A stretch of 62,924 nucleotides of DNA, counting the filler, from Hausera hauseri (lineage: Eukaryota): the NCBI GenBank assembly GCA_046269625.1. It is 11 parts of 11 records of this genome, joined end to end, with 100 filler letters (N's around TTAATTAATTAA, not from the genome) between each part and the next. Parts side by side here need not be neighbours in the genome. Positions count along the whole stretch, not along the records: positions 49,187 to 58,862 come from JBJURY010312165.1; 10 more parts are not named here. One strand, given 5' to 3'. A program made the position numbers and the translations under genes. Under the pieces are notes generated by a model, which saw nothing but the letters and a program-made list of their open reading frames with translations, ran no database searches and was not told where the DNA came from. Positions 12,321-60,930 of this stretch are shown here, piece by piece. Every line of letters starts with the position of its first letter. Positions within the stretch are counted from its first letter, which is position 1.

Positions 12321-12395
12321 TTATTTGGGTCCAACTCGGCTCTATTCACCGGATTCCCCAATTAACGATCCGGTCCCAACATTTCCTCCCTCCTT
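12321..12395 (-). repeat. Polypurine tract (12395-12382) and beginning of 3' LTR (TGTTG at 12381)
   Basis: Minus strand reads AAGGAGGGAGGAAA|TGTTGGGACCGG at the end of the pol ORF. Confidence 0.8.
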
Positions 12396-15300
12396 GGGGC
12401 AATCCGGTCTGTTAAAACTTTCTTCCATTTCGATCCAATCCATTTTTTCTCCGATTTTACAGATTCTATTCACCGGTCTCTTATAGATTTCCTCATTGAG
12501 CTTTATTTCCACTACTCTTACAACGCCATCTGTCCCAGGGAATATTTTTGTGATTTCAGCGACAGGCCAATGGTTCAATTTTTCATTTCTTTCCAGCAAC
12601 CATACTTTGTCCCCAGGTCTTAGATCCTCCTTACTTCCCTTCATCTTCTCATAGTTTCTTTGTTCTATTAGGAATTCATTTTTCCACCTGTTCCAGTATT
12701 CCTCGGTTAATTTTTGAATATATCTCCATCTGCTGGCTAAACTACTATGATTAGTTCCAGTTAATTCTGAAGATACTTCACCATTATGTCCTGCTACTAT
12801 GAAGTGGTTTGGGGACAAGATTATATCATTTTTGCAGTCATCAATAACTCTTACTAACGGTCTATTATTGACTATTCCTTCCACTTCTACCAATAAAGTG
12901 CCTAGCTCTTCATCAGTTACACACGCTTCCGGGAGCAATTTATTTAAGGCATTCTTCACCGATTTTATCATAGCTTCATAGACCCCTCCAAAATGTGGAG
13001 CAGCGGGGGGATTGAATATCCACCTTATTTCCGTATCCTTGAGTTCTTTTCTTAACGTGTACGTATCTATCCGGAATTCACAAATCTCTTTGTTTACTCC
13101 TACGAATGCTCCTCCATTATCGGAGATTACCAATGATGGTCTACCCCTTCTGCTGATAAATCGCTTAAAGGCCTTTAAGAACGAATCCGTGTCTAGTCCA
13201 TTTAATACCTCAACGTGTACACCCCTACACAGCAGACATGTGATTAGGCAAATGTACCTTTTTTCTTGAGCTAGTCCCCGCTTTTGTCGTGTCTTTATCG
13301 GTCCAGCAAAATCCACTCCAACTTTATCGAAAGCTTTGAGGGGTAACCCAGTCCTAAATGATGGCAGTGGGGCTCCCATTGTATGTGTTCCCTTAGCATT
13401 CTCTCTTTTACATATTAAACAATAATTTTGATACGATTTTACTAGTTTTTTCATCTTTGGGAACCAATAATTTTTACCCAACTCTGCCACTTGATGATTT
13501 ACTCCGGCTGCGTGTCGTAAGTTTAGATGAGTATCTTCGACTATTAATTTCGTTACGACACTCTTTGCAGATAGGATTATGGGATATTTTTGTTCCCAGT
13601 TCAACCACGAGGTCGTAATGAGTCGACTACTGGATCTCAACACCCCTTCTTCGTCTAGAATAGGGTTGAATTTCGCTATGGAACTTTTGAAATTAATCTC
13701 CTTCTTTGTTAATATATTTTTTATCTCTTGGGCAAATTCCTTCCGTTGATCTTCCTTAATTATCTCTACCTTAGCTCTTTTCCTTAATTCGACTTCCTCT
13801 AAGTTGTCATTGCTTTCCGTTTGCAACATCTCCGCTATCTTCTGTTTGATCATTTTTTCCCAACGAGATTCAACAAGTTGTCCCGCTTCTCCGACATTCA
13901 TATTGTTTTGGTTTTCTTCTCTCCCTGGTATAGCGTTCGATGACATAAATGTGAATGTATCTTTTCTTCTTTCTTCATCTTTAGGTTTTGGTAACCCTTT
14001 CGGTTGAACTGGCCATTGATCTTTTGTCTCCTTAAGGAAGGCAGGTCCGTTCCACCATTCTCCTTTATTTCTTAGTTCCTCTATACCCAATCCTCTTGAT
14101 AGGTAGTCTGCTGGGTTTTGTTCAGACTTTATATAATTCCATTGTCTTCCAACAGACTCCTCGTGGATGTATCCAATTCTGTTTGCGACAAATGTCTTGT
14201 AACATTTGCTACACCCCTTAATCCAGTACAGTACGTTCATACTGTCTGTCCAATACTGCATCTTATTTCCACGTTCGTCTAAGATTCTCCCTACCTTCTT
14301 TCCCAACTTAATCCCTACACAAGCTGCCAGCAATTCCAGTCTGGGTATAGCAATCGACTTTACCGGGGTTACCTTGCTCTTCGAACCTATAATCTTTACG
14401 TGGATTTCTTCCTTTATCCTTGACCTTAAATAAGCAACTGCTCCGTATCCCCACCTCGAAGCGTCGCAGAATATATGGATTTCACTATTCCCGTCCTCCT
14501 GAAACTGTAAGTTCCTTGGTATTTTTATTATATTTAATTTTTCCATTTCTTTTATCCAATTTTTTATTTTTTCGTTTAGTTCTCCTGGAACTTTTTCGTC
14601 CCAATCCAGACCCATTATCCATAGTTGCTGTAGATATATTTTACCCAACAACGTGTAGCAGCTCAAGAACCCCAGGGGATCGAAAACCTTTGCCAAGGTG
14701 CTTAACAATGTCCTTTTTGTTATGTCCACTCCTTGTTTTTCTCTACTCTCGAACTCGAAATTATCCTCATCCACTTTCCACTTCATACCTAATGTTTTGG
14801 TAATTACTTCCGTTTTTTCAACTATATTAAATTCTCTTGCCCGACTTAAGTTGGGGATGAGATTCATTAACTCGTCTGAATTCGACACCCATTTATGGGG
14901 TTTCATCCCCGCTGTCTTCCATATCTCATCGAGTTCATTATATAACGATATCGCTTCCTCTTCAGTCCTGACCGAGTCGATGCAATCATCCATGTAAGTA
15001 GAGTACTCGATGGTTTCGACCGCTCTCGGATACTTTTCCTTGAATTTTTCTGCATTATGTCTCGAAATTAATTGAGCCAAAAACGGAGACGCATTTAACC
15101 CGAAAACCAACCGGTCAAACTCGTAAGTCTTCAGTTTCCCATCTTTGTACCAAAGAAATCTTAAATACTTCCTATCTTCTGGTTTGACCTTGATTTGTAA
15201 AAACATCTCTTGGATGTCGCATATCACTACCCATTTATGCTTTCTCATTCTTAATAAGACATCTACGATGTCCAGTTGTAATTTAGGACCAGGTTCCAGA

Positions 15301-16355
15301 AAATCATTTAAACATTTTCCTCGGTATTTAGAGGCTGCGTCAAACACTATTCGACACTTGGTTGTTTCTCTATCGATTTTCAAGACAGGAAAGTGTGGTA
15401 AAAGCCAGGCTGAGTCTTGTTCCTCGTGTTCTTTTACCTCTCTTATATATCTTTCCTCGATGTGAGTTGTTATGACCTTTTCGTAGGCTTCCTTGGCTTT
15501 TTCATCTTTTTCTAACTTTTTTATTAACATGTTTAACCGTTTTTGTGCCAACCACTCATTTTTCTCTATTTCCGGTTGTTTTCCTTCTTTCCAAGGTAAC
15601 GGTACACAATACCTATCTTTCTCATAAGTCGTCTTTTCCAATACCCATGTTGTGACTTCCTCATCTTGTACGCTTCCTTTTGTTACCTTCGAATCCATGT
15701 TGAACTCTATCTCCCACAACCGGTTCAAATCACTTTGCAGTTCTTCAGTTTTCGTCCAAAAGGTCCTTACAAAACTACTGCTCGCTTTCTTCTTTCCCTT
15801 TTTTATCGTTCCCACACATGTCCACCCTAATGGAGTCAATCGCGCTACGGGCTCACCTGTTTTTCCGTATACCTCTTCAATAGAACGGTGTAATTCCAAG
15901 TAATTTGCTCCAATGATTCCGTTTACTTGTGATTGGTCAGGTATCACGTTGAATTTCAAATTCTTTAAATGAGGCCACCTTCGCTTTTCTGCAAACCAAC
16001 TTACCGCTTTCATCTTTCCAGTTGGATTTTTCATTGCTAGTGCTTCAAATTTAATACTCAACGATTGATCCAGACTCATTAACTCCAATTTAACTCTATT
16101 GATAGTCATCTTTGTTTGCTTTCCTCCCACAACCGTTACTGTAAGCTCTTCCGTTTGTTTTTCAACACCTAATTCTTCGCACACCTTTAGATCGACGAAG
16201 CTTTCAGTGCTGGCATCATCTAATAACATCACCACCTTTCGTTCCTTCATTCCATTTTTCAGCCACACTTCTATTGTTCTTAAGGCCACTGTTTCTTCTT
16301 CACTATCTAGTTTCTGAGAACCTTGCGTCACATAGGTCCTGACGTCCTTTTGTCG
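12342..16355 (-). CDS. pol: BEL/Pao Pol (PR-RT-RNaseH-IN), uninterrupted
   Basis: 1329-aa ORF. The frame stays open up to the N gap (RQKDVRTYVTQGSQK), so it is probably continuous with Gag. Confidence 0.96.
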   Translation of the reverse strand, partial: RQKDVRTYVTQGSQKLDSEEETVALRTIEVWLKNGMKERKVVMLLDDASTESFVDLKVCEELGVEKQTEELTVTVVGGKQTKMTINRVKLELMSLDQSLSIKFEALAMKNPTGKMKAVSWFAEKRRWPHLKNLKFNVIPDQSQVNGIIGANYLELHRSIEEVYGKTGEPVARLTPLGWTCVGTIKKGKKKASSSFVRTFWTKTEELQSDLNRLWEIEFNMDSKVTKGSVQDEEVTTWVLEKTTYEKDRYCVPLPWKEGKQPEIEKNEWLAQKRLNMLIKKLEKDEKAKEAYEKVITTHIEERYIREVKEHEEQDSAWLLPHFPVLKIDRETTKCRIVFDAASKYRGKCLNDFLEPGPKLQLDIVDVLLRMRKHKWVVICDIQEMFLQIKVKPEDRKYLRFLWYKDGKLKTYEFDRLVFGLNASPFLAQLISRHNAEKFKEKYPRAVETIEYSTYMDDCIDSVRTEEEAISLYNELDEIWKTAGMKPHKWVSNSDELMNLIPNLSRAREFNIVEKTEVITKTLGMKWKVDEDNFEFESREKQGVDITKRTLLSTLAKVFDPLGFLSCYTLLGKIYLQQLWIMGLDWDEKVPGELNEKIKNWIKEMEKLNIIKIPRNLQFQEDGNSEIHIFCDASRWGYGAVAYLRSRIKEEIHVKIIGSKSKVTPVKSIAIPRLELLAACVGIKLGKKVGRILDERGNKMQYWTDSMNVLYWIKGCSKCYKTFVANRIGYIHEESVGRQWNYIKSEQNPADYLSRGLGIEELRNKGEWWNGPAFLKETKDQWPVQPKGLPKPKDEERRKDTFTFMSSNAIPGREENQNNMNVGEAGQLVESRWEKMIKQKIAEMLQTESNDNLEEVELRKRAKVEIIKEDQRKEFAQEIKNILTKKEINFKSSIAKFNPILDEEGVLRSSSRLITTSWLNWEQKYPIILSAKSVVTKLIVEDTHLNLRHAAGVNHQVAELGKNYWFPKMKKLVKSYQNYCLICKRENAKGTHTMGAPLPSFRTGLPLKAFDKVGVDFAGPIKTRQKRGLAQEKRYICLITCLLCRGVHVEVLNGLDTDSFLKAFKRFISRRGRPSLVISDNGGAFVGVNKEICEFRIDTYTLRKELKDTEIRWIFNPPAAPHFGGVYEAMIKSVKNALNKLLPEACVTDEELGTLLVEVEGIVNNRPLVRVIDDCKNDIILSPNHFIVAGHNGEVSSELTGTNHSSLASRWRYIQKLTEEYWNRWKNEFLIEQRNYEKMKGSKEDLRPGDKVWLLERNEKLNHWPVAEITKIFPGTDGVVRVVEIKLNEEIYKRPVNRICKIGEKMDWIEMEESFNRPDCPKEGGNVGTGSLIGESGE

Positions 16356-38062: not shown

Positions 38063-38243
38063 NNNNNNNNNNNNNNNNNNNNNNNNNNNNNNNNNNNNNN
38101 NNNNNNTTAATTAATTAANNNNNNNNNNNNNNNNNNNNNNNNNNNNNNNNNNNNNNNNNNNNTGCTGGTTACTCCAGCACTTGTACTGCTGATTTTTGTT
38201 GTGATATTAGATTTTTGAGATTTAGATTTTTGGGGTTTAAATT

Positions 38244-40790
38244 TTATTGGCATAGGATTAATTTTCTGAAAGTTTTTTTGAGAATTTTATTTGTCACAAT
38301 TAGAATTTGAATTTTATAATTTATTAACTTTAGTATTTTTGTAAGGTGGAACCTTACAATGTGTATGGTGTTACAAGATACTTTATATCCTTGTTTATAA
38401 AGATCTTCATTCCAGATGGGGTCTGAGATGCCTTCTATTTTCAAAATTTCGTTTGGCTCTTCATTATCGCTATCTGATAATCCACTCAAAATAAATAATG
38501 AGAATATCCATAGTAGTATTGAAGTCCATGATGGGCTAGGGTGTTGAGAAGTAGTCTCGGCTGCCTCAGCTGTGAATAGAAAACATATTCCCAGAAGGAG
38601 TAACGTACCAAAAGAAAATGTGGAATAGCCTTTTATTCCCGAGGATTTCCGTTTTTTATCTTTTTCCTGCAGGTCATGAATATGCATTGCTCTTGTCTCG
38701 TTCGCAATTTCGTCCAAATATTTGATACTGTTTCCTGCAAATTGTAGTTGGTCAATCTTCAACCATTGTTCCCGTGGGAGGTTACTGTCTAGAGGTTGAC
38801 CCATTCTTCTATTCCAAGCTCGTTTTACTTCTTCCACTCCGTTGATAAGTTCTGTTCCCCCTATATTTAGATTACGATGTTTATAGATTTTCGATGTTCG
38901 ACTAGCGGCCACATAGTCATGGTGTTGAGATTTCCCTGGACAAACTAAATCAGGGATTGTATAATATACTTCTTCACAACTTATCTTGATTAGAAGTTTA
39001 TCTAATGAAGTTAGCGTATTGAAGTCCAATTTTAAGTCTTCACATATTATTTTTATTATAGGTCTATATTGTTCGTCTGTTATTCCGCACTTCTCGTGGT
39101 ATTTACTAAGAAAATCTCTTAGCTGCACTACACTATTTATGGGTCCTTTGACTAATTGTTGGGCATGGTTAATACGTTCCGAGGTGGCTAATAAGAAATT
39201 CTCCAATCGATGTCGATTTTCAGCTTCTCTGGTTAAAGGAAGTGGTGGCAGATTTTTTCCTTCTCGTTGGGGCAGTTCTGCATAATTCGGCTCGATTGGT
39301 TTGACTTATTTATGTCGTACCTGCTCGGTAAAATCTATTCTTGTTGACCTGTTTTTATTACTTATTGGTAACTCCTTGCTTTCTTCCGGCTGATATTTTT
39401 TAATTTCCTCCCTTAGGAGTTTAATATTCTCTTCTGCTTCTTCGAACTTCTTGCTTATAACTGTGTAGCTTGTCGGTGTTTGAAACTCACTTGTAGCTTG
39501 CATTCTCATTAAGTCGGGATAAATAAAGGTTGTTGACATAGGTCTTAATAAATCTTGTAAAGAATTTCGTGGTGGTTTTTGTGGAATACTTGCCATACTA
39601 GATACCAAAATAGTATCCATATTGGTTATTGAGGGTAAGGGCACTTGCCTTCTTACATAGTCATTCGAAAAGAAATTGTCTGCTTCCTCATCGTAACCTG
39701 CCATACGGCTAGGAAACATATAATACACGGATATCAACAACAGTACGACTGTGCTATTCCAAGTGTTGGTCGTAGAAGTTGTTTCAGTTTATTGGGCGTC
39801 CGCGCATCCAAATATTATGAGTAACATTAAGGTTATCAAGGTTATGGTAGATAACCTGAAAGGATTTCCGAAAATTGTTGAAGGGGTATTAGTTGAAAGC
39901 ATTTCCATTATTCGTGTTTGTGTTATTTTTCGGGTTAGTGTAGATTCTGTATTGTGTTCGATTGATCGCTTTAACGTAATATAATTTAATGAAGGTGTCA
40001 AAGTCTCTTCTCCTGGCGCGAACCACCACTGATCATTAGCCTGAGGTTTTGCGTCTTGATAACCCTCGCAGTTGAATGCAATTGATCTTCCAATAACTTT
40101 GAGTTCTGCTCCTGTCAGTTTGTATAGTACATCTAAACCAATAATAAGATCAGAATACGATTCTTGTGGGTTGGCGTAACAAGTAACGTCGATATATCCT
40201 ATTGTTAAATCTAATTTTCCACACGCTTCAGGTATATAATGAGTAATCCTTCTATGCAGTCGTAAATTTATACAAGTCAACGCAGTAGTGATGTCAAGTT
40301 CCGCATTAACGTACTTACCGTATACTTTGACTAATATTGGTATCAATAAGGGATAATCGTTCTAACTCTGACGATAATGCATATTATATAATAATTCTAA
40401 CCCTTTCATTTCGTCTCCCAACTCGTTTACGCTTTTTTGATATTTCTCCAAATCCTTCGTCTTTTCTAGCGAATTCGTAGCTACATCTATTACTATATCC
40501 TAATCTATTAGCGTATCTCTACCTATGATACAAGGGATTGTGGCATTTTCTAGTATATGATACAAGATCCTCTATCGTTTATTTTTTAATTTGGTTAAGG
40601 CTGTAACCAAGCCTAATGATTTTAACTGATTTACATTTATTAGTTTGTGGTTGATTTCACTGCTTTCAGTCAATTTCAGTTTTAAAATTTTTATTGTGTT
40701 CTTACTTAAATAGTATTTTGCTGCTCCTGTGTCTACTATTGCTTATATTTTGACTTTATTTATAGTTACAGTTGTGGTTACTGTGTTGTC
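38244..40790 (-). pseudogene. In-frame extension after integrase: two additional aspartic-protease-like domains plus repeated signal/TM segments
   Basis: KI*AIVDTGAAK...PCIIGRDTL; VKVYGKYVNAELDITT...DLIIGLDVL; hydrophobic ITLITLMLLIIFGCADA and FGTLLLLGICFLFTAEA. All pieces share the integrase frame. Confidence 0.75.
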
Positions 40791-43700
40791 TGATCCATCC
40801 TCTATAAATGCTATTGTCGTATCTTTATCTTCCAACTGCATTCTACTCCTTAATGGGTATCTGCAGGGTGGTGCTTGTTCTAATTTGCATTCCTTAGCTA
40901 CCGGTTTACATCGTTGCACCCTCATCCAAGAGGTTTTATTAGGGTTGGACAAATTCTGTAGTTCTACACTTGATTCACTTATTTGTAGTATCTTATACGG
41001 TCCTTTATACGACAATTTTAGTTTCAGGCTTTCGCCTGGCTTACAGGTCTCATCTAGTATGTTGATTAAATCTCCAATTCGATATACATGAGGTTTTGCT
41101 TTCTTATCATACTGATCCTTGTAATTTTCTTGATGATATTTAATTTTCAATCCGGCTCTAATCCATGCTTTTTGTATTCTTTCTTGTAGAATTGCTGCAT
41201 AATCAGGCTCTTCCATCAATTGTGATTGTGGTGGTCTATATTCCAAGTCAATTGGCACAATATCTCTTCTACAATATAGTAAAAAGAATGGTGATTCTCC
41301 GGTTGTCGTGTGGGGACTTTGTCGGTAGGCATATACACACGGTTTTATATATAAATCCCAATCAGCTTGATGATTATATGCGTAACTAGATATCATGATC
41401 GAAAATTGTTTACTAAAGGCTTCTACTACACCATTGGCTTGAGGATGATAAGGTGAGATAAAATTGTGATTGACTCCTAGTATCGCTAACACCTTTTCCA
41501 TAAGTTTGCTGCAAAAGTTACTTCCTCTATCAGATATCATTGTCATTGGTACTCCATATTCAAATATTACGTCATCCACGAATCTTCTGGCCATGACATC
41601 TGTGGTTCGGTTTATCATTGGCATCGCTATTGGAAATTTTGAGTGGTAATCTATTGCCGTAAGTACGCATGTGTCTCCTCTATCAGTGGTGGGTAGTGGT
41701 CCCACTACGTCAACGCCTATACAAACAAATGGTGATGCTAAAACTGGTACCGGTTTTAATAGTGTTTTTCTCGCTTGAAAATTTCCTCTTTTTTTGAACA
41801 AATTTGGCAATTTGTACACCAATCTTTCACATCATCTGCTATCTTCGGCCAGCAATATTTCTGCTTGAGTCTGCCTAATGTAGCTTTATAACCCCGATGT
41901 CCACCGAGTTGTCCGTCATGGTAGTGTAGTAAAAGTTTTTCGCGCATGTGTTTTGGTACAATCATGAGTAGATCTTCACTCTCCTGATATTGGATATTTC
42001 CCCTATCCATTTTATATTTATTTTTGCTCCGTTCTTTGTTTAGATTATTACGAATTTTTCGAATTTCTTCATCCTTTGCTTGTTCTTTAGCTATAGTTTC
42101 GTTTGTAATCGGTATGGATAAGAATATATGCATCTCTTCGTTGACTTCTGCATTGTCTACTTCATCTATCATGGTCTGAATTAAGTCGATCATTTTGTAA
42201 TACTCGTATAAGATATCCTCTACTAACGGATCCTTGTAGTCACTATTTTTCACTTCGTTGATTATCGTTATTCAATGTTTGAATAATCATATTTATTAGT
42301 TGATCGGTATCCTTTGTACGTTTCTTTCTTGTTGCTTTGGGTATACTTGGATGAACTTTCTGCGAATAGTATTCCTTTAGGTCCTGCATTATCGGAATTA
42401 GAGTTGATGTGCTCGTTATAGTCTTCATCGATATCACTTTCCTGAAGTCTTGATAGAAAGTCTGCATTAGCATTTGCTTTTCTTTGTTGGCATTTTATTG
42501 AAATTTCCAAATCTTGAATTTCTTCAGCCCATTTCATTAATTTTCGGCTATTATTCCGCTGTTTCATTAACCATTGTAACGGTTTCCGATCAGTGTATAG
42601 AATTATTTCTCGACCGGTTATATAGTATCTAAAATATCGCAAAGCATATACTATCGCGTAACATTCTCGCTCGATTGTTGACCATCTACGTTGTGTTTCA
42701 CTTAATGTTTTACTGAGACATGCTATTATTCCTTCGCGTGGTTTGTCAGGAACAGATTGTCCTAAGACTGCTCCTATAGCGTAACCGCTAGCGTGGGTCA
42801 TTTTTATGTATGGATATTTGGGATCGGGAAATTGTAATATTGAAAGTGAAGTAAGGATTTGTTATAAAACTTTGAATGCTCTCTGATGTGTTTCTTCCCA
42901 ATTCCATGTTGTTCCTTTTTTGATTAGCTCTACTAATGGTTTAACTATATTTGCAAAATTATACACAAACTTTCTATAGTAATTTGCCATTCCTAACAAT
43001 CTTCACAATTTTTTAGGCCATTTGGGCGGTTTTAATTTCTTGAATTTTTCTACATTTCTAGGATCGGGTTGAATTCCTTTACTTGACACTATGTATCCAA
43101 GAAAGGTGACGGTGTTCTTAGCAAATTCGCATCTTTTCAACTTAATTTTCAAATGAGCTTGCTTCAGCCTGTCAAATACTTGAGAAATGTCTTTTAAATG
43201 TTGTTCGAAGTTTTCCGAAAATATTATTACGTCATCTATATACACCATACAACACGTTAGTCCTTGTAATACAAAATTCACATACCTTTGAAATGTAGCA
43301 GGTCCTCCTGTCAAACCAAAATGCATAACATTAAATTCCCATAATCCAGTTCCAGTAGAAAAGGCTGTTTTTGGTTTATCTTCTTCGGCTACTTCCAATT
43401 ACCAAAATCCACATTGTAAATCTAGGGTGGTGAATAGTGCGGCATTTCTTAGAGCTGTAAGCATCTCATCTGTCTTTGGTAATGGATAATTATCCTTCTT
43501 TGTGACATTATTTACGTCTCTAAAATCTACGCAGAATCGTTTTGCTCCATTTTTCTTCTGCACTAATACTACTGGAGATGTCCATTGTGAGAAGCTCGAT
43601 CTGATAATACCGTGTTCCACCATTTGTGCTATTTGTTTATCGCATTCTTCTTTCTTGACCTCAGCCATTCTATACGGATTTTGTTTCATAGGATAGGTGT

Positions 43701-44283
43701 TATCTGTGATTATATCATGTTGAATGACGTTAGTTCTACCAATGTCATTATGGTTTATGGCTATAATATCTCAATATTTGTGAAATAACTGCAGTAATTT
43801 TTTAAATTGATAAGGGGTTAAATCGCCGTCTTTAAATTTAATATTTTCATCTTCTACTAAAAACGTTGTTGCGCATACGTTAACTGGTTGTAACTGTCCT
43901 AAGTTGAGGTTTTGCCGTAATTTGATTGCCCTTTTATTGATACTTTCTATTAGCAGTTCTAAACATTGTACTCCTTTTGGTACAAATAAGGCATATTGTA
44001 GAATTTTGTATTTTTCATTGTTATATAAGTTCGGTTCAAACATACAAGGTTGCTTGTGGTATTGCGATGGTATTGTTAGCATTACTACTACCTGCTGTTG
44101 TGGTCTGATAATAACGTCATGAGTCAAAGTCATGTTGATATCCTCAGTTGGCAAGTTAGTCATCGTGTATTTAAGGGTTTTGGTTGAAAGGTCCATTGAG
44201 AGTCCTGAAATTTGAGATAATACATCCATTCCTATTACTAAGGGTACTGGCAATATTTTGTCGTCCACCACAAACAGTGTGAT
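40743..44283 (-). pseudogene. pol: Gypsy Pol (PR C-terminal half - RT - RNase H - integrase) with stops and frameshifts
   Basis: ORF pieces 44307-43771, 43689-43399, 43398-43003, 42801-42268, 42253-41756, 41822-40743. Confidence 0.93.
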
Positions 44284-44630
44284 GGTAGTAGAGGGATGTG
44301 AGCGCATGGCGCCAACCCCCCCAGTATTGAAAACCAGTATTCAATAATTAATGTTTTTATATGGGAAAATTTTGGAAATCAATATTTTATATGGTATCGA
44401 TTGCCGCAGTCGGGGTTTCACTATTTCCATCCCCTCCATAAAAATGAATATTTTATATGGGAAAATTTGGAGCAGTCGTGGTTTCACTCTTCCCACCCCA
44501 AAAAATCAATTGGCGCAGTCGGGGTTTCACTATTCCAACCCCCAAAAAATCATTTTCCGCAGTCGGGGTTTCACTATTCTAACCTCCAATTTGTTTAAGT
44601 TTTGCAAAGTTGTTATTTGTGTCACTTATG
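44284..44630 (+). repeat. Repeat terminus (same family as 26130-26466) truncating the Gypsy protease
   Basis: GGTAGTAGAGGG start; four CAGTCG(G/T)GGTTTCACT subrepeats at ~44407, 44473, 44516 and 44560. Confidence 0.7.
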
Positions 44631-49055: not shown

Positions 49056-49217
49056 CTCCAGCTATCGGTGAATTATGCTCATTACCNNNNNNNNNNNNNN
49101 NNNNNNNNNNNNNNNNNNNNNNNNNNNNNNTTAATTAATTAANNNNNNNNNNNNNNNNNNNNNNNNNNNNNNNNNNNNNNNNNNNNTTTGATGGTGGAAT
49201 AACCCGATCTGTAGTTG

Positions 49218-50640
49218 TCAGGTTATTCCATCATTAATTCCGTCCTGTGGTACCATCACCATTAGTTCTCTTTCGGGGATTTTATGACGCTTAATACAAC
49301 AGTTTTTGGGAATCAATCGACAAAACGCAATTAAGATTAGGAGAGCGAATATTGACGTTCCAATAACTGTTATTAATAACAACGTTGTCCATTTGGTTAA
49401 ATTTCCTATTTTGACGGTAGCCGTAGTCTCATCATCTATTCTGTCATTAGTTAATGGTTTCGTTATAACAATCTCGTTCAAGATTCATATTGTAAACACT
49501 CTACCTTGTTTGTTTTCTGAACATATTTGTATTATATAATCTGTTCTGGTTTTAACCCAATACATTGAATTCGGTAACTGCCTTTTGGCAGTGTTATTTT
49601 CTTATTATCGTGTAACGTTCGGCAGCTTATTTCTACGTCGTATCTCAGTGTTTCTTCCGCAATGAACGTTATTTCGCGTTGTGTGCCTGATATTTTACAG
49701 GGATTATTTCTGAATCTTTGTGAGATGATTTATTCCTTGGAGTGGTTTTGATGAGTGCAGGAGTAGTAGACTTTATCTTTGTATTCGTTGTCGTATCAAC
49801 TGAATTCAACTTGATTGGATTTTTGAGTCGGTAGCTTCCTAAATAGATACTTGACTGGTTTGGTCTGACTTCATATAAGTCTAACTGAATTCTATATTTT
49901 TATTTTGGCGAAACTTGCAACATTTCTTCTGTTGATCGACATCGATTTTGCAGTACTGCTGGTTGTAAGCTTGTATGTTTTCTTTCAAGAACCGAACTGA
50001 GATTACTTGACCCTTAATTAATTGTCGTTTTGTGTTTATTTGAATACAACTGTCCTTTTGATTTTCTGTTATACTGGCGATATTTTCTTCCAACATTAGT
50101 TTTACTGGGTTGATGGACTGGATCATTTTGTTGGGTTTTATCCAATGATGCTTGTTCCAAGCAGGAATAACTAATTGAAATTTTGGTTTTATTTCGTAGA
50201 TTTTAGATCATTTCGATGAATACAGTCGATAGGTAAGGTTATAAGTATGTCCGAAATCCGTACTGCAACATTGTGTATGCTCTACTGGTCTGAAGTCACT
50301 ATTCCTCGTTTCTTTTGTCATTATATCATCTAGAGCAATTTGAAATCTTCCAAAATCGTGGTGTATTTTCTGTATCGTAAATCCAATGCATGTGGAGTTC
50401 GGCGAATAATATTGAATTGTGACTGATTGTAATGACGTAATATCTTTTTGTCTTTGAATTTCTTCTAATGTTGGTTTCTTTTCTGTTTTATTAACCCCAT
50501 TATTCCGCGTTTCATATACATTTTTTAAGGTAGATTCGTCAATCCACCCTCTAGCTTGTGTTTTTAGAATATAAGATGCGATTAGCGATAATGCTAGAAT
50601 TATCTGAACGTATGATATCGGTCTAGTGATAATTGACGAG
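49218..50640 (-). pseudogene. Post-integrase type-I membrane protein (env-position), decayed
   Basis: Signal-like YVQIILALSLIASYILKTQA, Cys-containing ectodomain, C-terminal TM TLLLITVIGTSIFALLILIAF. Confidence 0.55.
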
Positions 50641-50649
50641 GTCTTGTTT

Positions 50650-53600
50650 TCTCGTGGTCTTAGATTGTAATGTTTGGTTGGCCTTATATCCGTTTTAACT
50701 ACTCTTTGAATCGATACGACTTCTTCTTTACCAATCTTGTTAATATAAACCATAGTTGGTGTTGTATGGACTATTTTGTATGGTCCTCTTCCGGTATGTG
50801 TTAATTTCAAGGATGTACCTTTCTTCGCGACTCAGTAGTGTATATAAACCCAATTTCCCTATTTTAGATCATGAGGTTTAATCTTTTTATTGTATTGGTT
50901 TTTAAATTGTTCCTGGTATTCATGTGATAATGTTTTCGCAACTTCCCAACATTTCTGCAATCTTGTCTGTAAGACTTCCGCAAAGTTTTGTTCTGAATCC
51001 TCGAGGTTCTTTTCATACGGTGTCATACCTAGATCTGTAGGTAAGATTGCCTCTCATCCATACATCATAAAGAACGGTGTAAACCCTGTTGCTGGATGTG
51101 GAGTCGTATTAATCGCGAATTGTGTTCCTTCTAGGAATTCATCCCAATTCTTTTGATCTTTGGTTACTACTGTTGATAGTATCCGAATAACTGTTGCGTT
51201 CATCCGTTCAACCATTCCATTACATTGTGAGTGATATTCAGTAGTAGTTAAGCGTTCAATTTCAAATATTTTGGTAATCTTTTCGAATAATTCACTTGTG
51301 AAGTTCCTTTCTCTATCCGTTAAAATCTGTTCTGGTGGTCCATATCTGCAAATGATTTTTCTTACTACTGCGTCGGCTAAAGTTTCTGCCTTTTGATCTA
51401 ATAGTGCCACTAGTTCTACGAAGTGAGTTAGTCGGTCCACACATGTTAGAATGTATCTGTTGTTTTTGAGCGTTTTAGGTAGAGGTCCTACTATATCCAT
51501 AGACATAGCTTGCATGGGTCTATCTTGTACCTTTATAGGTTTTAATTCTGCTACGTAGCCTTTTGTTTTCTTTTGCTTTGTTGCGCAAACTTTGCATGCT
51601 CCTCCCCAATACTTTACATCAATGTAAATATTTGGCCAGTAGTATTTATTTAATATCCTTTCTAATATCTTCTTCTAAGATATGTGTCCGGCTAGGTATG
51701 AATCGTGTTCAGCCATGAGTACTTCGATACGCAATCCTTTTGGAATAACTATTAGTCTTCTCCCTTTTCGCTCGTAATACAAAATATTGTCTCGATCCGA
51801 TGCATGGTATTTATGTCCATGTTTCTGTAGATGCTTTTTCAGTTGTCGTCCTTTTGGTATTTCGGCGTTTCGTACAAACTCGATAATTTGCTGAATAACC
51901 GTATCTTTAGCTTGCTCAGCTGTAATTCTAATTGTCTTATCCAATATCAGGATTCTTTGTCGTTCAATCAGCTGTTCAAGTTGTGGTCTCTTTAATGTGG
52001 TGATTGCACTCGTTTTTGTTTTTAGTCTCGAGAGTGCGTCGGCGTCGACATGTTTGTTACCAAATTTGTATTGAAATTTAATGTTATATCGCGAAATTTC
52101 ATCAATCTAGCGGTTTAGTCTACATGTTGGGTTATTAGCTCGTCCGTTTAATGTTGTAACTGCTTTGTGATTAGTCACTATGATAATCCTTTGTCCATAG
52201 ATATATACATTAAAGTGTCGTAGTGCTTTCTTAACTGCCAATGTTTCCAATTCGGTAGCCGAATAATTTTTTTCCGCTTTCTTCAATGAACGTCCACCAC
52301 AAGCTATTGGATGTTCTAATTCTTCGTCTTCGCGTTTTTCAGCTAATTCGTATCCAATTCCTTCTTTGCTCGCATCCGTTTTAATGATGAATGGTAGGTT
52401 AAAATCTGGGTATCTTAAAACTGGTTTACTTGTCAAGATTTTCTTCATTTCGTCGAATGCTTTTTGTTCCACTTCTGTCCATGTCCATTTAGTTCCTTTT
52501 TTGAGTAGGCGATATAGTGGTGCATTAATTTTTGAATTATCTGGTACGTAAGTGGAGTAATATCCACATAGGCCTAACCAACGTCTTGACTCTTTTTGAT
52601 TCAGTGGTTCAATACAATCGGATATTTTATTTAGCAGAGATTTGTCAGGTTTTGATCCTCCTTCTCCCACTATGTGTCCAAGGTACGATACGGCGTTCTG
52701 TGCCCATTTACATTTCTTTGGGTTTAACTTCAATCCTGCTTGTTCCAGTCTTATGAGTGTATCTTCAATATCCTTTAAGTGTTCCTCTTCTGTTTTTGAT
52801 GCTATCGTCACGTCGTCTAAGTACGCGAATGCATGATCAAGTCCCATGAGCATCTTATTCATCATTCTAGTACAAATAGCTGGTCCTGTGGTGATGCCAA
52901 AGGTCATAACATTAAATTCGTATACGCCATCATGTGTTTTGAACGCTGCCTTATATCGATCTTTTTCTTCGATTTCTACTTGCCAGTATCCCGATTGTAA
53001 GTCGAGGGTGGTAAACCATCTTGCTCCTGACAGTCTATCTAATGCCTGCTTTATTAATGGTAGTGGAAACGAGTCTTTCATCATCAGCGTATTTAACGCG
53101 CGATAATCTATACAAAACCGATGTTTTGTGGTTCCTTTCTTTTTAACCATCAGTATGGGTGAGTACCATGATCGATAACTTGGTCAAATTATGTCGGCCT
53201 TCAACATCCGCTCTACTTCTTCAGTTATTTCTGGTCCCAATGAGTGGGGAGGCGGATACCATTTGGGCATTTTCTGTTCTTCTAGATCGATTTCGTCATT
53301 TGAGTCAGGTTTCTCCCTCAATGGAATGGTTAATCTTAGAGCCTTTGCTCTACCTATGTCTTCTTTGTTTTGCGCTATTATAGAGCGGAATTTACACAAT
53401 AATTCGTAGAATTTGCAATACGCTTCGGGAGAAAATTGGGTTTCAACATGAGGTGGAAATTCGGCACACTTGTATGGTTTCTCCTCTATTGCCACTGCCG
53501 ATACTCTGCAAGTGTGACCCAAAGTAGTATTAGCGTGCAATCTTACTGGAATCGGTTCACTGTTTACTAATCTGATAGGTATTCGTCCCGTCATTAATCT

Positions 53601-54150
53601 ACATAAAATGTTACTAAACATAAGGTTTGGATCGATATTCTCTTGGGGCTCAAAATATACTGGCAAATCTTCATCTTGTCGAATTTGTGTGAAAATTGTC
53701 ATTTCCGTCCTAGGTGGAATGTCTTCATCTACTGGAACCCATACTTCGCCCGATTTCCTTTTTTTTATTACTTTTGTCCCTTTTATTGGTTTGAGTTCAA
53801 TTAATTTTTTATTGTGCACATCGATTGCCATACTTGGTAGCTGTTTCAATATGTCGCAACCTAGTACTACATCGTCTGTTAACTGGTCCATTATCGCATA
53901 TTCGTGTTGGAGTGCTTGACCCATCATATAAACGGCAGAAGTCCATTTAAATTTCGGCTTCGATACTTGTCCAAATGCTCCTACGCTACCTGGGTCCGAT
54001 GATGCGTGCGGTCATAGCTGGTCTCGCAATGTGGTTGGTATAAATTCATGTTTTATAAATGATTTTTCTGATCCAGTGTCGATTAATGCATACACTTCCC
54101 AATCTTCAATGTGTATTTTAGCAAAGTGTCTCCCTTCTGCTACTGTTCCG
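50650..54150 (-). pseudogene. pol: Gypsy Pol (PR-RT-RNaseH-IN) with in-frame stops
   Basis: All ORF pieces from 54395 to 50208 lie in one frame, separated by stop codons. Confidence 0.93.
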
Positions 54151-54785
54151 TAGCAATTTGACGCTATCTTTGACTGTTTTATAGTAGAGACTCTATGTCC
54201 ATTTATCGTTATTTCTGGCGATGAAATTATATCTTGCCTTAATTGTCTTAATTCTCCACTCGGATATAAATTATTATTCGTCATCTCATTGACTCGACTG
54301 TCAATGAGCGGTTCCTGAGGTAGTAAACACATTTTCGGGTTCTCCCAGATTGTTGATTTCGATTCTATGTGTCGTGGTATCCTTTTTGAGTACAATATTC
54401 CGTGGTCGTTTTAGGTTGGTCCTTGGTTGATAACATTCATTTTCCGTAGTACACCATATTGTTTTGTTTTTTCATAAGGATCTTCGTAATTAATGGGTTT
54501 TTGATAGATTTCGGACCGACATGATACGATTGATTTGCGGTCGCAGTCTTCATATATTGGTGTTGTTGGCGGCATAATGGGCAATGGCGCGTTAATCACT
54601 GAGTACATCTTGTGCATCTTCATTCTGGAACTTACTTCTCCTCCCTTAGGCTCGTCATCATCTGAATCATCCTTTCGTGTTACTGTTGTCTTATTTTTAC
54701 GTCTATACAAAATCGAGTGCCTCCCTCGTCGTTTGCGATTATAGTACCCGACGTGGCGTTCTACGTCATTTTTCCAGCGATTTTC

Positions 54786-56609
54786 TTAGTAAGCCTTAAG
54801 CATCTTTCCAAAGGGTGTGATAATTGCGGTCAAAATTTTGCAAGCGAATCCTGTCAATGTGAATATTTCATATCCTTTTATAATAGCTTGGATCACTGCT
54901 TTAATTAACTGGACTAAGAAGTAGATGGCTAAGAATCCAGATGCGGCTTGTCCGAAAATTAAAAACCTTTCCAAAATCTTATGCAATATCTCTGCAGTTA
55001 CTCTTTGATAGTGATTAGCGCCGAGTAACGACTCCCATTTCGCTTGAAAGCGGGTGTCATCCATGACTATTGACGTGGCCCGATTCAGTTCATAAGTTCG
55101 CTGTCGCGAAAATGCTAAAAATAGCCTAAAAGCTTCTATGTCTTTTGGCCTATAAATTCCTTTGTTAGCTGTATCTTCGAATTTATCTTCCGATGATCCT
55201 TTGATTAGATTTGTCCCCGTTAGTTTACTAGGGGCTGTGGCTGTACCTCCATTTGGTAGACTTATCCAGTCGGTTCCACTGCGTCTAAACATTGGTTCCC
55301 CAATACTTGTCTTGCATTCCTTCAGTATTGTTGGTTCAGTCGAATTTGCCAGTAATACTCTGGTGAGTGGCATCGCTAGCCTTGGCATATTCTCGTAAAT
55401 GACCGGTAATTCTTGCATACATCTCTTTTCCTCTACGTTGGTCGGCACGTTTTTTTCACATTCGTATGTTAATAGGACTTCTCCGGTAACCCGTCCAAAA
55501 ACACCTTCCTTTATTGGCATAATCGGTAATGCCAACTGTGGGTTGGCGTAAATTAAAGCCAGTTTGGTTCTCATGACTTTAGTATTTAATCAGCAGTCAT
55601 ATGTTATCATTTTGTAATATAGTTCCACTATTCCGGTCTGCCCTTTGTAATAGAAATAGTCGCCTCGGTTTTTGAGGTAATCCTCGATCCGCACATCTTG
55701 TGTTTTTAAATCATACGTTTTCATATAGATTTCTGTTTCTGCTACAAAAAGTGCTTAGTAGTTAGTGGCATACATAACTACATCGCAGCGTGATAACATA
55801 TCCTTTCTAATAAATTTTAACCCGTGCACATCTGATATTAATATCGTCGGTGTGGATTGTTCTATTACATCTTCCCTTGATCTGGTATTTCATGCAATTT
55901 GCTCGAATAACGCTTTCCAGTAGTTTCATTAAATTTTTTTTCTGATTTTGATGAAAGTGCAGTCCTTCTTGGATGGTGGATTCCATACGATAACCGAACT
56001 TTGGAACGTTCAAGCACCATCATGAATGTGACATTTCTGATTTTCGGTGAATAGTTTGGTAACGGTATGAAACATCGCTTTTAAGGATCTTAACTCGGTT
56101 TCATAAAAATCTACGACTAGTATTCCTCCTTTTATTCCCTTCCCTGTGTCATATTCTCCTCCGACACAATAACCGGTGTGCATGTTCAATTTTTCCACTG
56201 CCATTTTGTAGGCTCTAATTATTTTTCCTTCTTTGGCTTCCAATTCTATGCCGTCCCAAACCATTTTACCGGTTGAACGGGCTCCTAAGCAATGTTTTCT
56301 GTCCACGTTTATTGGTATCGATGGTGTGGTATGTTTGATTATTGAAGAATGGCCGTGTATATTACCACAATGAAATATGCTGGGGGACCTACGTATCATG
56401 CATTCTGTTGCATACATTGCAATTAACTCACGTTGTTGATATAGTGTATATTTCTTCTCTCTTGTCTGGAGCTTGTGGGGCCTCGCATCCTCATATGTTT
56501 TTAAATCCATCAAGGAATATTTCTGGCCCACCTTAAATTTGTTACAGTAGTATATGGTGACTGCTCCCATTTGCTTCACTAACATTATTATTGTTAGTAA
56601 ATTGATTGA
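54786..56609 (-). pseudogene. Chuvirus-like / herpes gB-type class III fusion glycoprotein
   Basis: Internal signal LLTIIMLVKQMGA; IYYC...YSLMD...LYQ...ECMIRRS.SIFHCGNIHGHSS; LALIYANP...GVFGRVTGEVLLTYEC...CMQELPVIY...AMPLTRVL; KGIY; TM FLIFGQAASGFLAIYFLVQLI. Confidence 0.8.
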
Positions 56610-57317
56610 CTAATTCGATTCATTTCCTTTACTCGAAGAGATGTTTCGTACTATGTCCTCTAAGTTATTGGTTCTTTTCGTATTGTCCACTTTTCTGAAT
56701 AGTTTGGCCCATTTTATTTCTTTAGGTACCCTTCTCGCCGCTTTTCTAGCTAACCCGATTATCTTGTCGAACTCATTTTCTGGGAGAGGATTAGTTTTTA
56801 CGGCTAAATATATCAAAATTTTTCTTAATTCTTCCATCGTATTATCCATCATGATTCTATCAATTACTGTTTCATCAGGAAGAGTACTTTTAGATAATTT
56901 GAATCGCAACGTTTTCATTGTCCCTGCTATATTATATATATTAGTCTTTCTTTTTCGGATAATATGTCACCTTGTAGTGCGGTATAACTAACTATTCTTA
57001 TTAAATATTTCATTAGCTTAACTAATTCTTCATTATCTGAGCTCGGAGTGGGTATTGATAATTGTCTTAGTTTTCTAATCAGATCTGCATTATATTCCAC
57101 TTCTTTTATTTTCCTCGGTCGTCCAACCGGTCGTTTCGGTTTCGTTTGTTGTAAGGTTTCACTTATAGGTACTAAATTTTTATGGTATTGAGGTTTGCCG
57201 TCATTCGTTTTAGGTATTCGAAGTACATTGCGGCGTCTTGAATCACCATAATATTTTTAACGCAATGTTCTGTACGCGCCTTCCTTATGTCTTCGTTTTT
57301 GGTTTGCTCACTAGAAA

Positions 57318-57534
57318 TTATTGCTATTATTCGATTTTCTTCGTGGGGTATGATTCCTACGTCTATTAAGCATTCTAACTCATCTAATATCCTGCCCCTG
57401 AAATACAGTCGGTAATTAACTTCTTCTTTACCATCCCTGTCCATTATTCGTTGTCATATATCCGCAACGGTGGTATAAGTAGTGCATTCAAATTCCTCAT
57501 CATCCATCCAATCGGATGATACTTTCACTTTAAT
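57318..57534 (-). pseudogene. Ubiquitin-like domain within the retroelement polyprotein
   Basis: TVADI*QRIMDRDGKEEVNYRLYFRGRILDELECLIDVGI aligns without gaps to ubiquitin [40 protein letters not shown]. Confidence 0.75.
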
Positions 57535-59071
57535 CCCCACTTCTGGTTTATTTATCAATCGTTTAGCGTATTCTCTTATTAGGAGCTTGGGAACTGCACT
57601 GTATGCGGTGTTTTCACTGGCTAGCTTAGTAAAAGTTGGAATTAATTTCTTTAATTTGTCTTCACTCATGTCTATTTTCAGTACACTGTCCAATTCTTTT
57701 TCTGCTAACGTAGGATCCAGTAACATTTTTACGTCAAATTTCTTTTTCAGGGTATTAATAGGTGACTCATAGATTTGTATAGGAGTTCTTTGACTCTGTT
57801 CGTTTAAACCTGGGCGGTATTTATCCCACTCGGTATAATTATCTGCGTCAGGTAGCTCGTAGTTCATTAATGCCGCGTGTCCTACTTGGACTTGTTTGTG
57901 TAGTTCTTTTATTTGCGGTTACAATATTTTCATTACGGATACTCTAAATCCGTCTCCATTTTCGCAGGCTTGTTGTATCAATGTTATTATTCAGCACATT
58001 TCTTGTGGTTGTATCCAGGCTTTCTCTTAATAGCCGGTTATTTCTGCGATTCTGTCTTTTTACCATCTCTGTACGAATTCCGTTTTGTCGTTCATTTCCG
58101 ATTCCGTAAGGAAATACTTGTTCTTGTCAACTTCTGTTTCTCTCAGTAATTCGTTTAGCTCGCGTTGTCTTTTCTCTGAGCGTAATTGGGTTCCTTTTAC
58201 CAGACGTATTCGATTTGTTAGTCGTTTGGCTACTACTTCGTAAATTTCTGCCATTTCTGTTAATAATAGGATTAATTTGTGCATTTGATTTAATACTTCA
58301 GCATCCGGATCTATTGCATCCATTAGCCTGCCTATGAACTGGGCTTCGTCGGCAGTCAACTGAAGATCCTTCCTAATTTTCGTTAGTTCGGCGTGGCAAT
58401 GTAAGTCGAAGCATGGTGTCCATTCTGCTGGATTCTGTAAGTATTGTAGTGTTTGTACCAGGGCAATCCGGTGATCTTTACATACTTGCAATGTTTCTAT
58501 TTCCTTTGCTGAGATTTTCTTTAATGGTTTCTGCATTAGGTTCTGTATCCCTCCCCTGCGGATGTTGGCTAAACTTTGCTGAAGATTACTTAGTTTGTTT
58601 CTTTTTCTGTAGAACTCCTTTTCTTCTATCATACTATATATCGCTGTTAATGTTGTTTGCTTTTGATCCCTGTTCATAAATTCAAGTTCTCAGAATGATT
58701 CGAATTTAATTCGCAATTTTGCTTCATCTTCCATCGTACCGATATCTAGTAGCATTTCATCCAATTGTTGTTTTATTATAGGCTCAACCACGGCGAATTC
58801 TCTCAGTCTTTCGCTTATTATCCCTGCTATGGAAGGTAACAAGTCTATCCACGTCTTTAGTTNNNNNNNNNNNNNNNNNNNNNNNNNNNNNNNNNNNNNN
58901 NNNNNNTTAATTAATTAANNNNNNNNNNNNNNNNNNNNNNNNNNNNNNNNNNNNNNNNNNNNGTTGTATAGAATGTATAAAATGTTGGTTGGATGTGTGT
59001 GAAAAATAATGATTGAATGATCCCTGGCAGGGTTCGGAAGACTGGGAAAACGGGAATAATTATGGCTGAAA

Positions 59072-59115: not shown

Positions 59116-59185
59116 AAATCGCATTTTGAATAAACATTTCCATTAGATTTTTCCGAATTGAAAAACTAAAAACAACTAAATCGAA

Positions 59186-60930
59186 ATGGGCCAAGAAAAT
59201 TTTGATGTAACGACAAAGGAATTGACGGAACTGATGATGCTGCGGCAGCACGAAGCCATAGCAGAAATCAAAGACAAATATGGATATGTTAACGAAATCT
59301 GTCGTAGGCTTAAAACATCAGCAAAATCAGGGTTAATTGATAATGATGAAATAATCAACCATCGACGAGATATTTTCGGCTCGAATATTATTCCACCGAA
59401 ACCGCCAAAGTCATTTTTTATGCTCATGTGGGAAGCTTTACAGGATCTAACATTGATTGTTTTAATGGTTGCGGCTGTTGTTTCATTGGGATTGGCACTC
59501 TATTCTAAGTACAGCGGCTCAAGTCATGGCGACGAAACTGAAGGAGATGCGAGCTGGATAGAGGGTGTTGCTATTCTCGGTGCTGTAATTGTTGTCGTCT
59601 TAGTGACAGCATTTAATGTTTGGCAGAAAGAACGTCAGTTCAGAGGCTTACAGGATCAGATTGAGGGTAATCACAAAATATCAGTGATACGGGACGGCAA
59701 GTCAAAAGAAATCGTGGTTGGAGATATTGTTGTTGGTGACATTTGTCAAGTGAAATATGGTGACCTATTGCCTGCGGACGGAATTATTATTCAAAGTAAT
59801 GATATCAAAGGCGACGAAAGCTCTTTAACCGGTGAAGCAGATCATGTTAAAAAGGGTGTCGACATTGATCCGATGCTTTGTCGGGTGCTCATGTAATGGA
59901 AGGTTCTGCCAAAATGGTTGTAACTGCTGTTGGTCTTAACTCACAAGCTGGGATTACTTTTTCATTACTCGGGGCAGCAGATGAGAAACAAGATAGGTCT
60001 TCGCCTGAGAAAACTAACCCTCAGGAAAATACCCAAAATTCAAAAACAGGAAAAACTGGAGATGACCTTGAATTGATTAAGTTAACGGAAGACGTTGAAC
60101 AATGTTCAAATCACAAATCTAATAATTATTCTGGTGGTGACGTGGACAAAGGAGATGCCGAACAGGCTAAGGCTTAACAGACGAAGAAAAAAAAACGTGT
60201 TGGCAAGAAAAAGGGTTCTGTATTGCAATCAAAGCTTAATAAGTTAGCGGGAACTATCGGCCAAGTTGGAACAATTGTTGCTGCACTTACAGTTTGTATT
60301 TTGGTAGTGAAATTTTGTTTACAAACATACCACCTGGATAATAAGCCTTGGAGTATGGATCATTTGAAGACAATGATTAGTTTTCTCATTATTGGAATCG
60401 TGGTGCTTGTTGTGGCTGTTCCAGAAGGTTTTCCATTAGCAGTTACAATTTCATTAGCATATTCAGTTAAAAAGATGATGAAAGATAATAACCTTGTGCG
60501 TCATTTAGATGCTTGTGAAACTATGGGTAATGCGACTGCTATTTGTTCCGATAAAATTGGTACTCTAACTACTAATCGCATGACTGCTGTTCAAGTTTTT
60601 TTTTTCAACGGCATTCATTACCGCGAGAATTTGCCATGTTTTGAGGAATTGTCAGTGAACACTTCGGACATTCTGATAAAGAATATTTCCATTAACAGCA
60701 GTTACACATCACGCTTGATGGCATCACATAAGCCTCAAGATTTGCCCACTCAAATTGCTAATAAAACAGAATGTGCACTTCTCGGTTTAATTAATGGTAC
60801 ATTAAGCGCAGTTATGAAGAGATCAGATCAAAATGGACAGAAGATAAGCTGCTTAAAGTTTATACGTTCAACTCCTCCAGAAAATCAATGAGTACAATTA
60901 TCGAGGATGAAGGGAAACTAATTCTTTTAA
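59186..60930 (+). pseudogene. ATP2B: Processed pseudogene of plasma-membrane Ca2+-ATPase (PMCA, P2B), 3' truncated
   Basis: [79 protein letters not shown] (DKTGT mutated). Intronless, with frameshifts at ~59880, ~60610 and ~60800 and a stop at 60175. Confidence 0.95.

Follow-up and report, generated by a model that had tools for sequence, protein, structure and literature searches.

A 62,924-nucleotide stretch of Hausera hauseri DNA (the window) carries a decayed, multi-copy element of the Ty3/gypsy type with its env ahead of pol, in which positions 57313-57534 on the minus strand very probably encode a ubiquitin-like domain (Ubl). This domain lies in an accessory region upstream of env and is under purifying selection in other copies of the element, consistent with the original prediction that it belongs to a retroelement. 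The element occupies the fragment at 49187-58862, whose minus strand is coding-like almost throughout, the visible coding-like part amounting to about 3,200 codons, interrupted by stops and frame switches. Its order is accessory region, gB/chuvirus-type env, protease, reverse transcriptase (RT)/RNase H and integrase, with the following features:

57535-58860, minus strand: likely helical coding region in the Ubl frame, with 5 stops and no Pfam family
57313-57534, minus strand: Ubl (beta-grasp) of about 74 codons without a C-terminal Gly-Gly (Pfam, phmmer, local profile)
57454-57456, minus strand: in-frame TGA stop within the Ubl helix (translation; other copies)
56930-57256, minus strand: coding segment in another frame, with an AT-hook-like motif (codon usage, translation)
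56613-56966, minus strand: segment immediately ahead of env, in the env-pol frame (translation, codon usage)
54414-56609, minus strand: gB/chuvirus-type envelope fusion glycoprotein, broken by stops (Pfam, hydropathy, motifs)
53838-54122, minus strand: aspartic protease with LIDTG at 54086, interrupted by a stop (Pfam RVP)
53490-53760, minus strand: protease-RT spacer, no Pfam match
52110-53183, minus strand: reverse transcriptase and RNase H of the Ty3/gypsy type (Pfam)
50778-51674, minus strand: integrase (zinc-binding part, core and GPY motif; Pfam)
49221-50640, minus strand: likely second membrane protein, frameshifted in this copy (hydropathy, translation)

Pfam searches recovered the pol order PR-RT-RH-IN, with matches to RVP (E 5.5e-5 with the stop read as X, exceeding the Pfam cut-off), RVT_1 (E 4.8e-37), RT_RNaseH_2 (E 7.3e-34), Integrase_H2C2 (E 5.5e-6) and rve (E 4.5e-13). 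Upstream of pol and sharing its reading frame, env matched Monjiviricetes_fusion (PF24664) at 56609-54789 on the minus strand (E 8e-12 and 3.6e-29) and showed a hydrophobic anchor near 54959 by hydropathy. The spacer at 53490-53760 possibly has a degenerate dUTPase-like fold, an assumption we make by eye. The upstream frame (562 codons) contains 6 stops, and another 16 interrupt the 2,122 codons between 56966 and 50600. No LTR-size repeat was found within the fragment, and coding sequence passes the fragment end at 58862, which places gag and the 5' LTR outside the view. RT homologs were 41-48% identical (120 among the matches listed), and neither PF00240 nor PF24664 occurred among the precomputed domains of these 120. 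Likewise, 29 RT-related metagenome loci showed no env, no upstream region and no Ubl (best 4.7 bits).

The regions next to the Ubl gave few leads. For the helical region, Atlas leads were weak, and its only relative found was the 150-aa protein P0002 from one short contig, which matches 58284-57823 on the minus strand with E 2.6e-10. The segment at 56930-57256 had no Pfam match and in the PDB retrieved only three chains of helical repeat or designed type, while the segment at 56613-56966 returned nothing significant in Pfam, PDB or Atlas. Neither did the two ORFs neighbouring the Ubl yield a usable lead from Atlas. About 60 codons past the Ubl, RPVGRPR is encoded at 57133-57113 on the minus strand, which we take to be an AT-hook-like motif.

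It had been predicted that reading through the TGA at 57454 joins two ORFs into a single Ubl that aligns without gaps to ubiquitin residues 22-61 or so and cannot be conjugated. Translation of the minus strand from 57534 down to 57349 confirmed the quoted sequence with TGA at 57454-57456 in frame, and in phmmer the domain paired gaplessly with residues about 19-62 of ubiquitin. Its end lies a few codons past the one noted earlier, the last strand being at 57333-57316; beyond this strand there is no Gly-Gly and the frame continues for about 45 codons, in agreement with a non-conjugatable Ubl. When an 87-residue stretch was searched with the stop as X, the Pfam ubiquitin family PF00240 matched model positions 3-59 of 72 with E 4.5e-5. 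This match therefore holds by E-value but, at 23.6 bits in a decayed copy with one codon as X, falls short of the curated cut-off of 25.4. Each half of the TGA-split domain alone gave no Pfam match at E<=1, PF13881 was weak for the Ubl (E 0.08), PF11976 had no match at E<=0.1, and a chance-looking LSR match of similar size (E 6e-4) arose among the same 24 proteins searched in Pfam. In the PDB, the best 60 of 174 matches at E<=10 were all named ubiquitin, ISG15 or engineered ubiquitin variants; the best single-domain chain reached E 0.0045, and the very low E-values are sums across polyubiquitin repeats at 7 bits each.

A local Ubl profile scored the domain at 18.4 bits, compared to 1.3 for its reversed sequence, a maximum of 8.7 among 5,000 shuffles, of which 4,554 scored, and a top score of 9.4 among those of 6,270 six-frame windows that did not overlap the domain; this profile favours the query, as its five sequences derive from two proteins retrieved by the query itself. 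Identity to ubiquitin is low (14/76, about 18-21%), and the domain retains the equivalents of ubiquitin R42, L43, F45, G47, L50, L56, D58 and I61. Tyr occupies position 44, Arg position 48 and Asp position 8 (in a loop of uncertain alignment), and the domain is acidic with 17 D/E versus 9 K/R. Judged from these residues, the altered Ile44 patch makes classical proteasome-receptor binding doubtful.

The resemblance could in principle be fortuitous, with a conserved segment of the element that is unrelated to ubiquitin, as might be argued from a score below the Pfam cut-off, from an unguided fold prediction unlike ubiquitin (see below) and from the lack of an intact Ubl-carrying relative among 1.84 billion representatives. 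We consider this highly improbable: neither the 5,000 shuffles nor anything else in the window approached the Ubl score, conservation falls on the core positions of a Ubl, the five secondary-structure elements all line up with those of a Ubl (in a guided, partly circular model), and a Ubl upstream of env is described for a related element type in the extracts of PMC6431247.

Structure prediction gave divergent results for the predicted beta-grasp fold. Without an alignment, AlphaFold2 returned an unusable model with a pLDDT of 42.5 and a topology unlike ubiquitin. Guided by two ubiquitin-family rows, which renders the result partly circular, it produced the beta-grasp order at a mean pLDDT of 83.5; the five guided models ranged from 83.5 to 48.6, and only 3/5 exceeded 70. 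This guided, partly circular model superposed on ubiquitin with TM 0.84, and a structural comparison gave Z 12.2 with an rmsd of 1.7 over 74-76 residues. The last strand was formed in it despite its misplacement in the alignment, a point less dependent on the guide rows.

Copies of the element are present in one public run, X1 (0.28 of sampled words), from which every piece of copy evidence derives. On the fragment, 28,871 contigs were placed, covering 30/30 bins and mostly 80-95% alike; they thus represent diverged copies of the element, which may come from a related animal. Across 57295-57546, 490 contigs were placed, two of them spanning the whole stretch, with no gap or joint listed. At the stop codon 57454-57456, no stop is formed in 1114.6 of 1118.9 depth units (54 contigs), which carry a difference within the codon. 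Because nearly all the depth from other copies lacks a stop at this codon, the stop represents damage to this copy, and programmed read-through of the TGA was ruled out by the same observation. One X1 contig joins across 56089-57944, an internal deletion that removes the Ubl together with the first part of env.

The differences within the Ubl were predominantly silent. Among the 40 of 44 rows shown, two in the stop codon were left out and 38 were scored; 25 of these 38 were silent against an expected share of 0.21-0.28, corresponding to a pN/pS of 0.13-0.20 (binomial p 2e-9 to 1e-6, with rows that are not independent events and with two rows from a codon changed more than once counted as non-silent). 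Rows that change an amino acid fell in 10 codons, none of them at the kept ubiquitin core positions (40 of 44 rows). The Ubl is thus under purifying selection in other copies, and since the copies are gapless, free of the stop and differ mostly silently, the stop reflects decay of a domain that is otherwise conserved. Hence, both the presence of the predicted domain across copies and its constraint were borne out. Such selection shows that the protein mattered; it does not reveal the bound partner. It also marks the Ubl in this related kind of element as a working part rather than a passenger. Across the element, 29 of the 32 scored places at which nearly all copies differ from the window lie at first or second codon positions (40 rows of 2,128, eight left out with uncertain frame), as expected if this copy drifted where the others stay fixed.

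That the Ubl shares one polyprotein with the retroelement proteins, as claimed earlier, cannot be read directly from this copy. Codon usage, trained on env-pol, favoured the Ubl frame between 58860 and about 57240, then another frame as far as about 56970, and from there the env-pol frame, with coding-like usage frame after frame from 58860 to 56520 and no non-coding gap. In this copy, two frame switches, at about 57240 and at 56970-56930, part the Ubl from the env-pol frame. The second coincides with a short length difference carried by 27 X1 contigs (2627 of 4769 depth units); for the first, no length difference is listed, and depth there falls to 12.7. Because there is no non-coding gap and the second switch shows a length difference, accessory region, env and pol likely form a single polyprotein. 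The two switches, the first of them lacking a listed length difference, would also fit a separate accessory gene, or a gag expressed via programmed frameshifting, with no env-pol polyprotein including the Ubl, and Burro-like accessory domains can occupy separate ORFs according to the extracts of PMC6431247. This arrangement is nevertheless very unlikely, given the continuous coding usage and the nearest listed slippery heptamer at 57179 rather than at the switch near 57240; poor cover at the first switch may moreover hide an indel.

The concept of such a domain is already in print: the planarian Burro element carries a ubiquitin/SUMO-like domain upstream of env, and in the literature as far as covered PMC6431247, in its extracts, was the only report found of a Ubl in an LTR element. 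In these extracts, Burro is described as one 4,873-aa ORF with Gag, MATH, Ubi2/SUMO-like (PF11976) and BCL2-like domains, the Ubi2/SUMO-like domain sitting between MATH and the BCL2-like domain. Its env lies in frame between BCL2 and protease and matches mononegavirus fusion glycoproteins, and a dUTPase-like domain is placed between protease and RT (PMC6431247, extracts). Arkhipova and Yushenova there propose that Burro meddles with host apoptosis and ubiquitination. From partial texts, BURRO1 is highly abundant and active in Schmidtea (PMC8532177), and Burro is cited as an example of gypsy elements with extra domains (PMC9289625).

Like Burro/GYPSM1, as portrayed in the extracts of PMC6431247, the present element places a ubiquitin/SUMO-like domain in an accessory part ahead of env, which shares the frame of pol and resembles mononegavirus fusion glycoproteins; many copies and decayed fragments are further common features. 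The element would work like a Burro, a likeness drawn from published description rather than from a sequence alignment. The two differ in that the Burro domain was assigned to PF11976 by HHpred (PMC6431247, extracts), whereas PF00240 is the best match here. MATH, BCL2-like, BIR, ankyrin and dUTPase-like domains were not found in Pfam, PDB and Atlas searches of this decayed, 5'-truncated copy, nor did these searches detect a BCL2-like domain between Ubl and env; the published Burro calls are partly HHpred-based (PMC6431247, extracts), while ours come from Pfam, PDB and Atlas. Support for the Burro domain in the literature searched amounts to one sentence of profile annotation in the extracts of PMC6431247. 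The domain offers a 74-residue handle on how envelope-carrying retrotransposons meet host degradation and stress pathways. The gain is modest, as the concept was published and this copy is dead.

Chary and Hayashi described GAG-ENV-POL elements of nematodes, bryozoans and flatworms whose env is of gB type (PMC13524379, in part), and ubiquitin is not mentioned in the main text or the 7 supplementary files of that paper. Like these errantiviruses, as presented in the pages consulted, our element has an env of gB/chuvirus type before PR-RT-RH-IN. Its N-terminal env half matched six Schmidtea 'C1a' rows of that source motif by motif, compared by eye, the common motifs being Y-x-x-Y-Q, EC-x-x-x-R, F-x-CG-x-x-H-x-H-S, G-x-C-x-GG-x-Y, ELR and YATNY. 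In contrast, nematode env rows on the same page lacked that motif series (by eye; the comparison covered the Schmidtea and nematode rows). From this likeness, a flatworm host is at most conjectured.

Host origin, as proposed in the original prediction, is what a Ubl would ordinarily suggest. A HMMER search of 1.84 billion representatives gave three hits, two of them multi-ubiquitin proteins and the third the 150-aa fragment noted above for the helical region, and among these representatives no donor nearer than ubiquitin was found for the Ubl. Ubiquitin identity of only 18-21% and a GC3 of 0.32, close to the 0.30-0.39 elsewhere in the element, led us to reject a recent capture of host ubiquitin, and we infer that any capture must be old. 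No homologs of the Ubl-bearing region or of env were found among longer proteins (782 and 2,145 candidates, respectively), and DNA scans for relatives gave 16 viral and 155 metagenome pattern matches, of which none was confirmed.

What the domain does can be framed by integral, non-conjugated Ubls. Rad60 SLD2, Rad23/Dsk2, midnolin, parkin and coronavirus nsp3 Ubl1 are, like the Ubl here, embedded beta-grasp domains without Gly-Gly, and they serve binding. All but nsp3 match the guided, partly circular model at Z 10.5-11.5, with no orthology to our domain (9-23% identity among the rows listed). The structural neighbours of this model include non-conjugated Ubls that bind E2 enzymes or the proteasome, such as Rad60 SLD2-Ubc9, Rad23 and midnolin. 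We propose, with confidence evenly balanced, that the Ubl serves as a built-in docking surface for host ubiquitin/SUMO machinery in the accessory region upstream of env. In intact copies, the accessory region, env and pol would be made as a single polyprotein, the arrangement described for Burro; signal peptidase and the element protease might then free an accessory protein on the cytoplasmic side, comprising helical region, Ubl and AT-hook-like motif. There, the Ubl would bind proteins that read ubiquitin or SUMO, such as an E2, a UBA/SIM protein or a receptor of the proteasome, and could tune degradation or stress signalling in favour of the element, without itself being conjugated to other proteins or cleaved away by host hydrolases. 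The decoy role named in the original prediction is likewise hypothetical.

The main rival to host docking is a role within the element, in which the Ubl would bind the element's own Gag/nucleocapsid or nucleic acid, or help the polyprotein to fold. The altered Ile44 patch and acidic surface, the adjoining AT-hook-like motif and the binding of nucleocapsid protein by coronavirus nsp3 Ubl1 (PMC9938351 and PMC8769549, each in part) all speak for it, while survival of the ubiquitin R-L-x-F-x-G signature over long divergence and the MATH, BIR and BCL2-like domains of Burro, which point at host ubiquitin and apoptosis pathways (PMC6431247, extracts), speak against it. On balance, we regard the internal role as possible though somewhat doubtful.

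Cleavage by ubiquitin C-terminal hydrolases needs a Gly-Gly end. The viral precedent originally invoked, ubiquitin inserts in pestivirus polyproteins, fits poorly. Similar to the Ubl here, inserts of cytopathic pestiviruses are ubiquitin-family sequence inside a viral polyprotein, but they are cellular ubiquitin, whereas our domain is about 20% identical to it and has no cleavage end (PMC8310069, in part). Since these inserts serve as processing signals at which host ubiquitin C-terminal hydrolases cut (PMC8310069, in part) and the Ubl lacks Gly-Gly, the inserts are a poor model, and coronavirus nsp3 Ubl1 would be the better viral analogy. A processing signal of this type, with a host hydrolase cutting behind the Ubl to free the next protein, would suit the position of the domain inside a likely polyprotein with further domains downstream, and pestiviruses offer the precedent (PMC8310069, in part). 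We nonetheless judge it extremely improbable, considering that no Gly-Gly comes after the last strand and that other copies have no difference listed there (40 of 44 rows), that the element encodes its own protease and that only 14/76 residues are identical to ubiquitin.

Downstream of pol, the integrase frame continues with a signal-like stretch, followed by an ectodomain that contains cysteines and by a transmembrane segment, and 49221-50640 had no credible Pfam family. In one X1 contig, both flanks are kept and 1,184 unlike letters replace 49420-50587, which suggests that the replaced stretch is a fast-diverging ectodomain. The likely second membrane protein after integrase distinguishes this element from the errantiviruses in the consulted pages of PMC13524379, and in the partly covered literature on such elements this putative protein is the part least described. 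In a bolder and unlikely scenario, the element would be a lineage separate from Burro that captured its Ubl independently as a true mimic disarming a ubiquitin- or SUMO-based host defence against retroelements, and a single reading frame would encode both of its membrane proteins, the gB-type fusogen ahead of pol and a rapidly evolving attachment protein behind integrase.

Elsewhere, fragments of the window are joined by N44-TTAATTAATTAA-N44 linkers, so that neighbours across a linker are not genomic neighbours. A second gypsy-type fragment at 38163-44630 (minus strand) has three ORFs (190, 160 and 353 aa) past integrase with no credible Pfam match, and has in common with the studied element only a weak protease-RT spacer match. 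A BEL/Pao-type pol ORF is open for more than 1,300 codons at 12345-16355 (minus strand). At 59180-60888 on the plus strand, a P-type calcium-ATPase-like coding sequence runs in consecutive frameshifted pieces with no obvious intron and is possibly a retrocopy.
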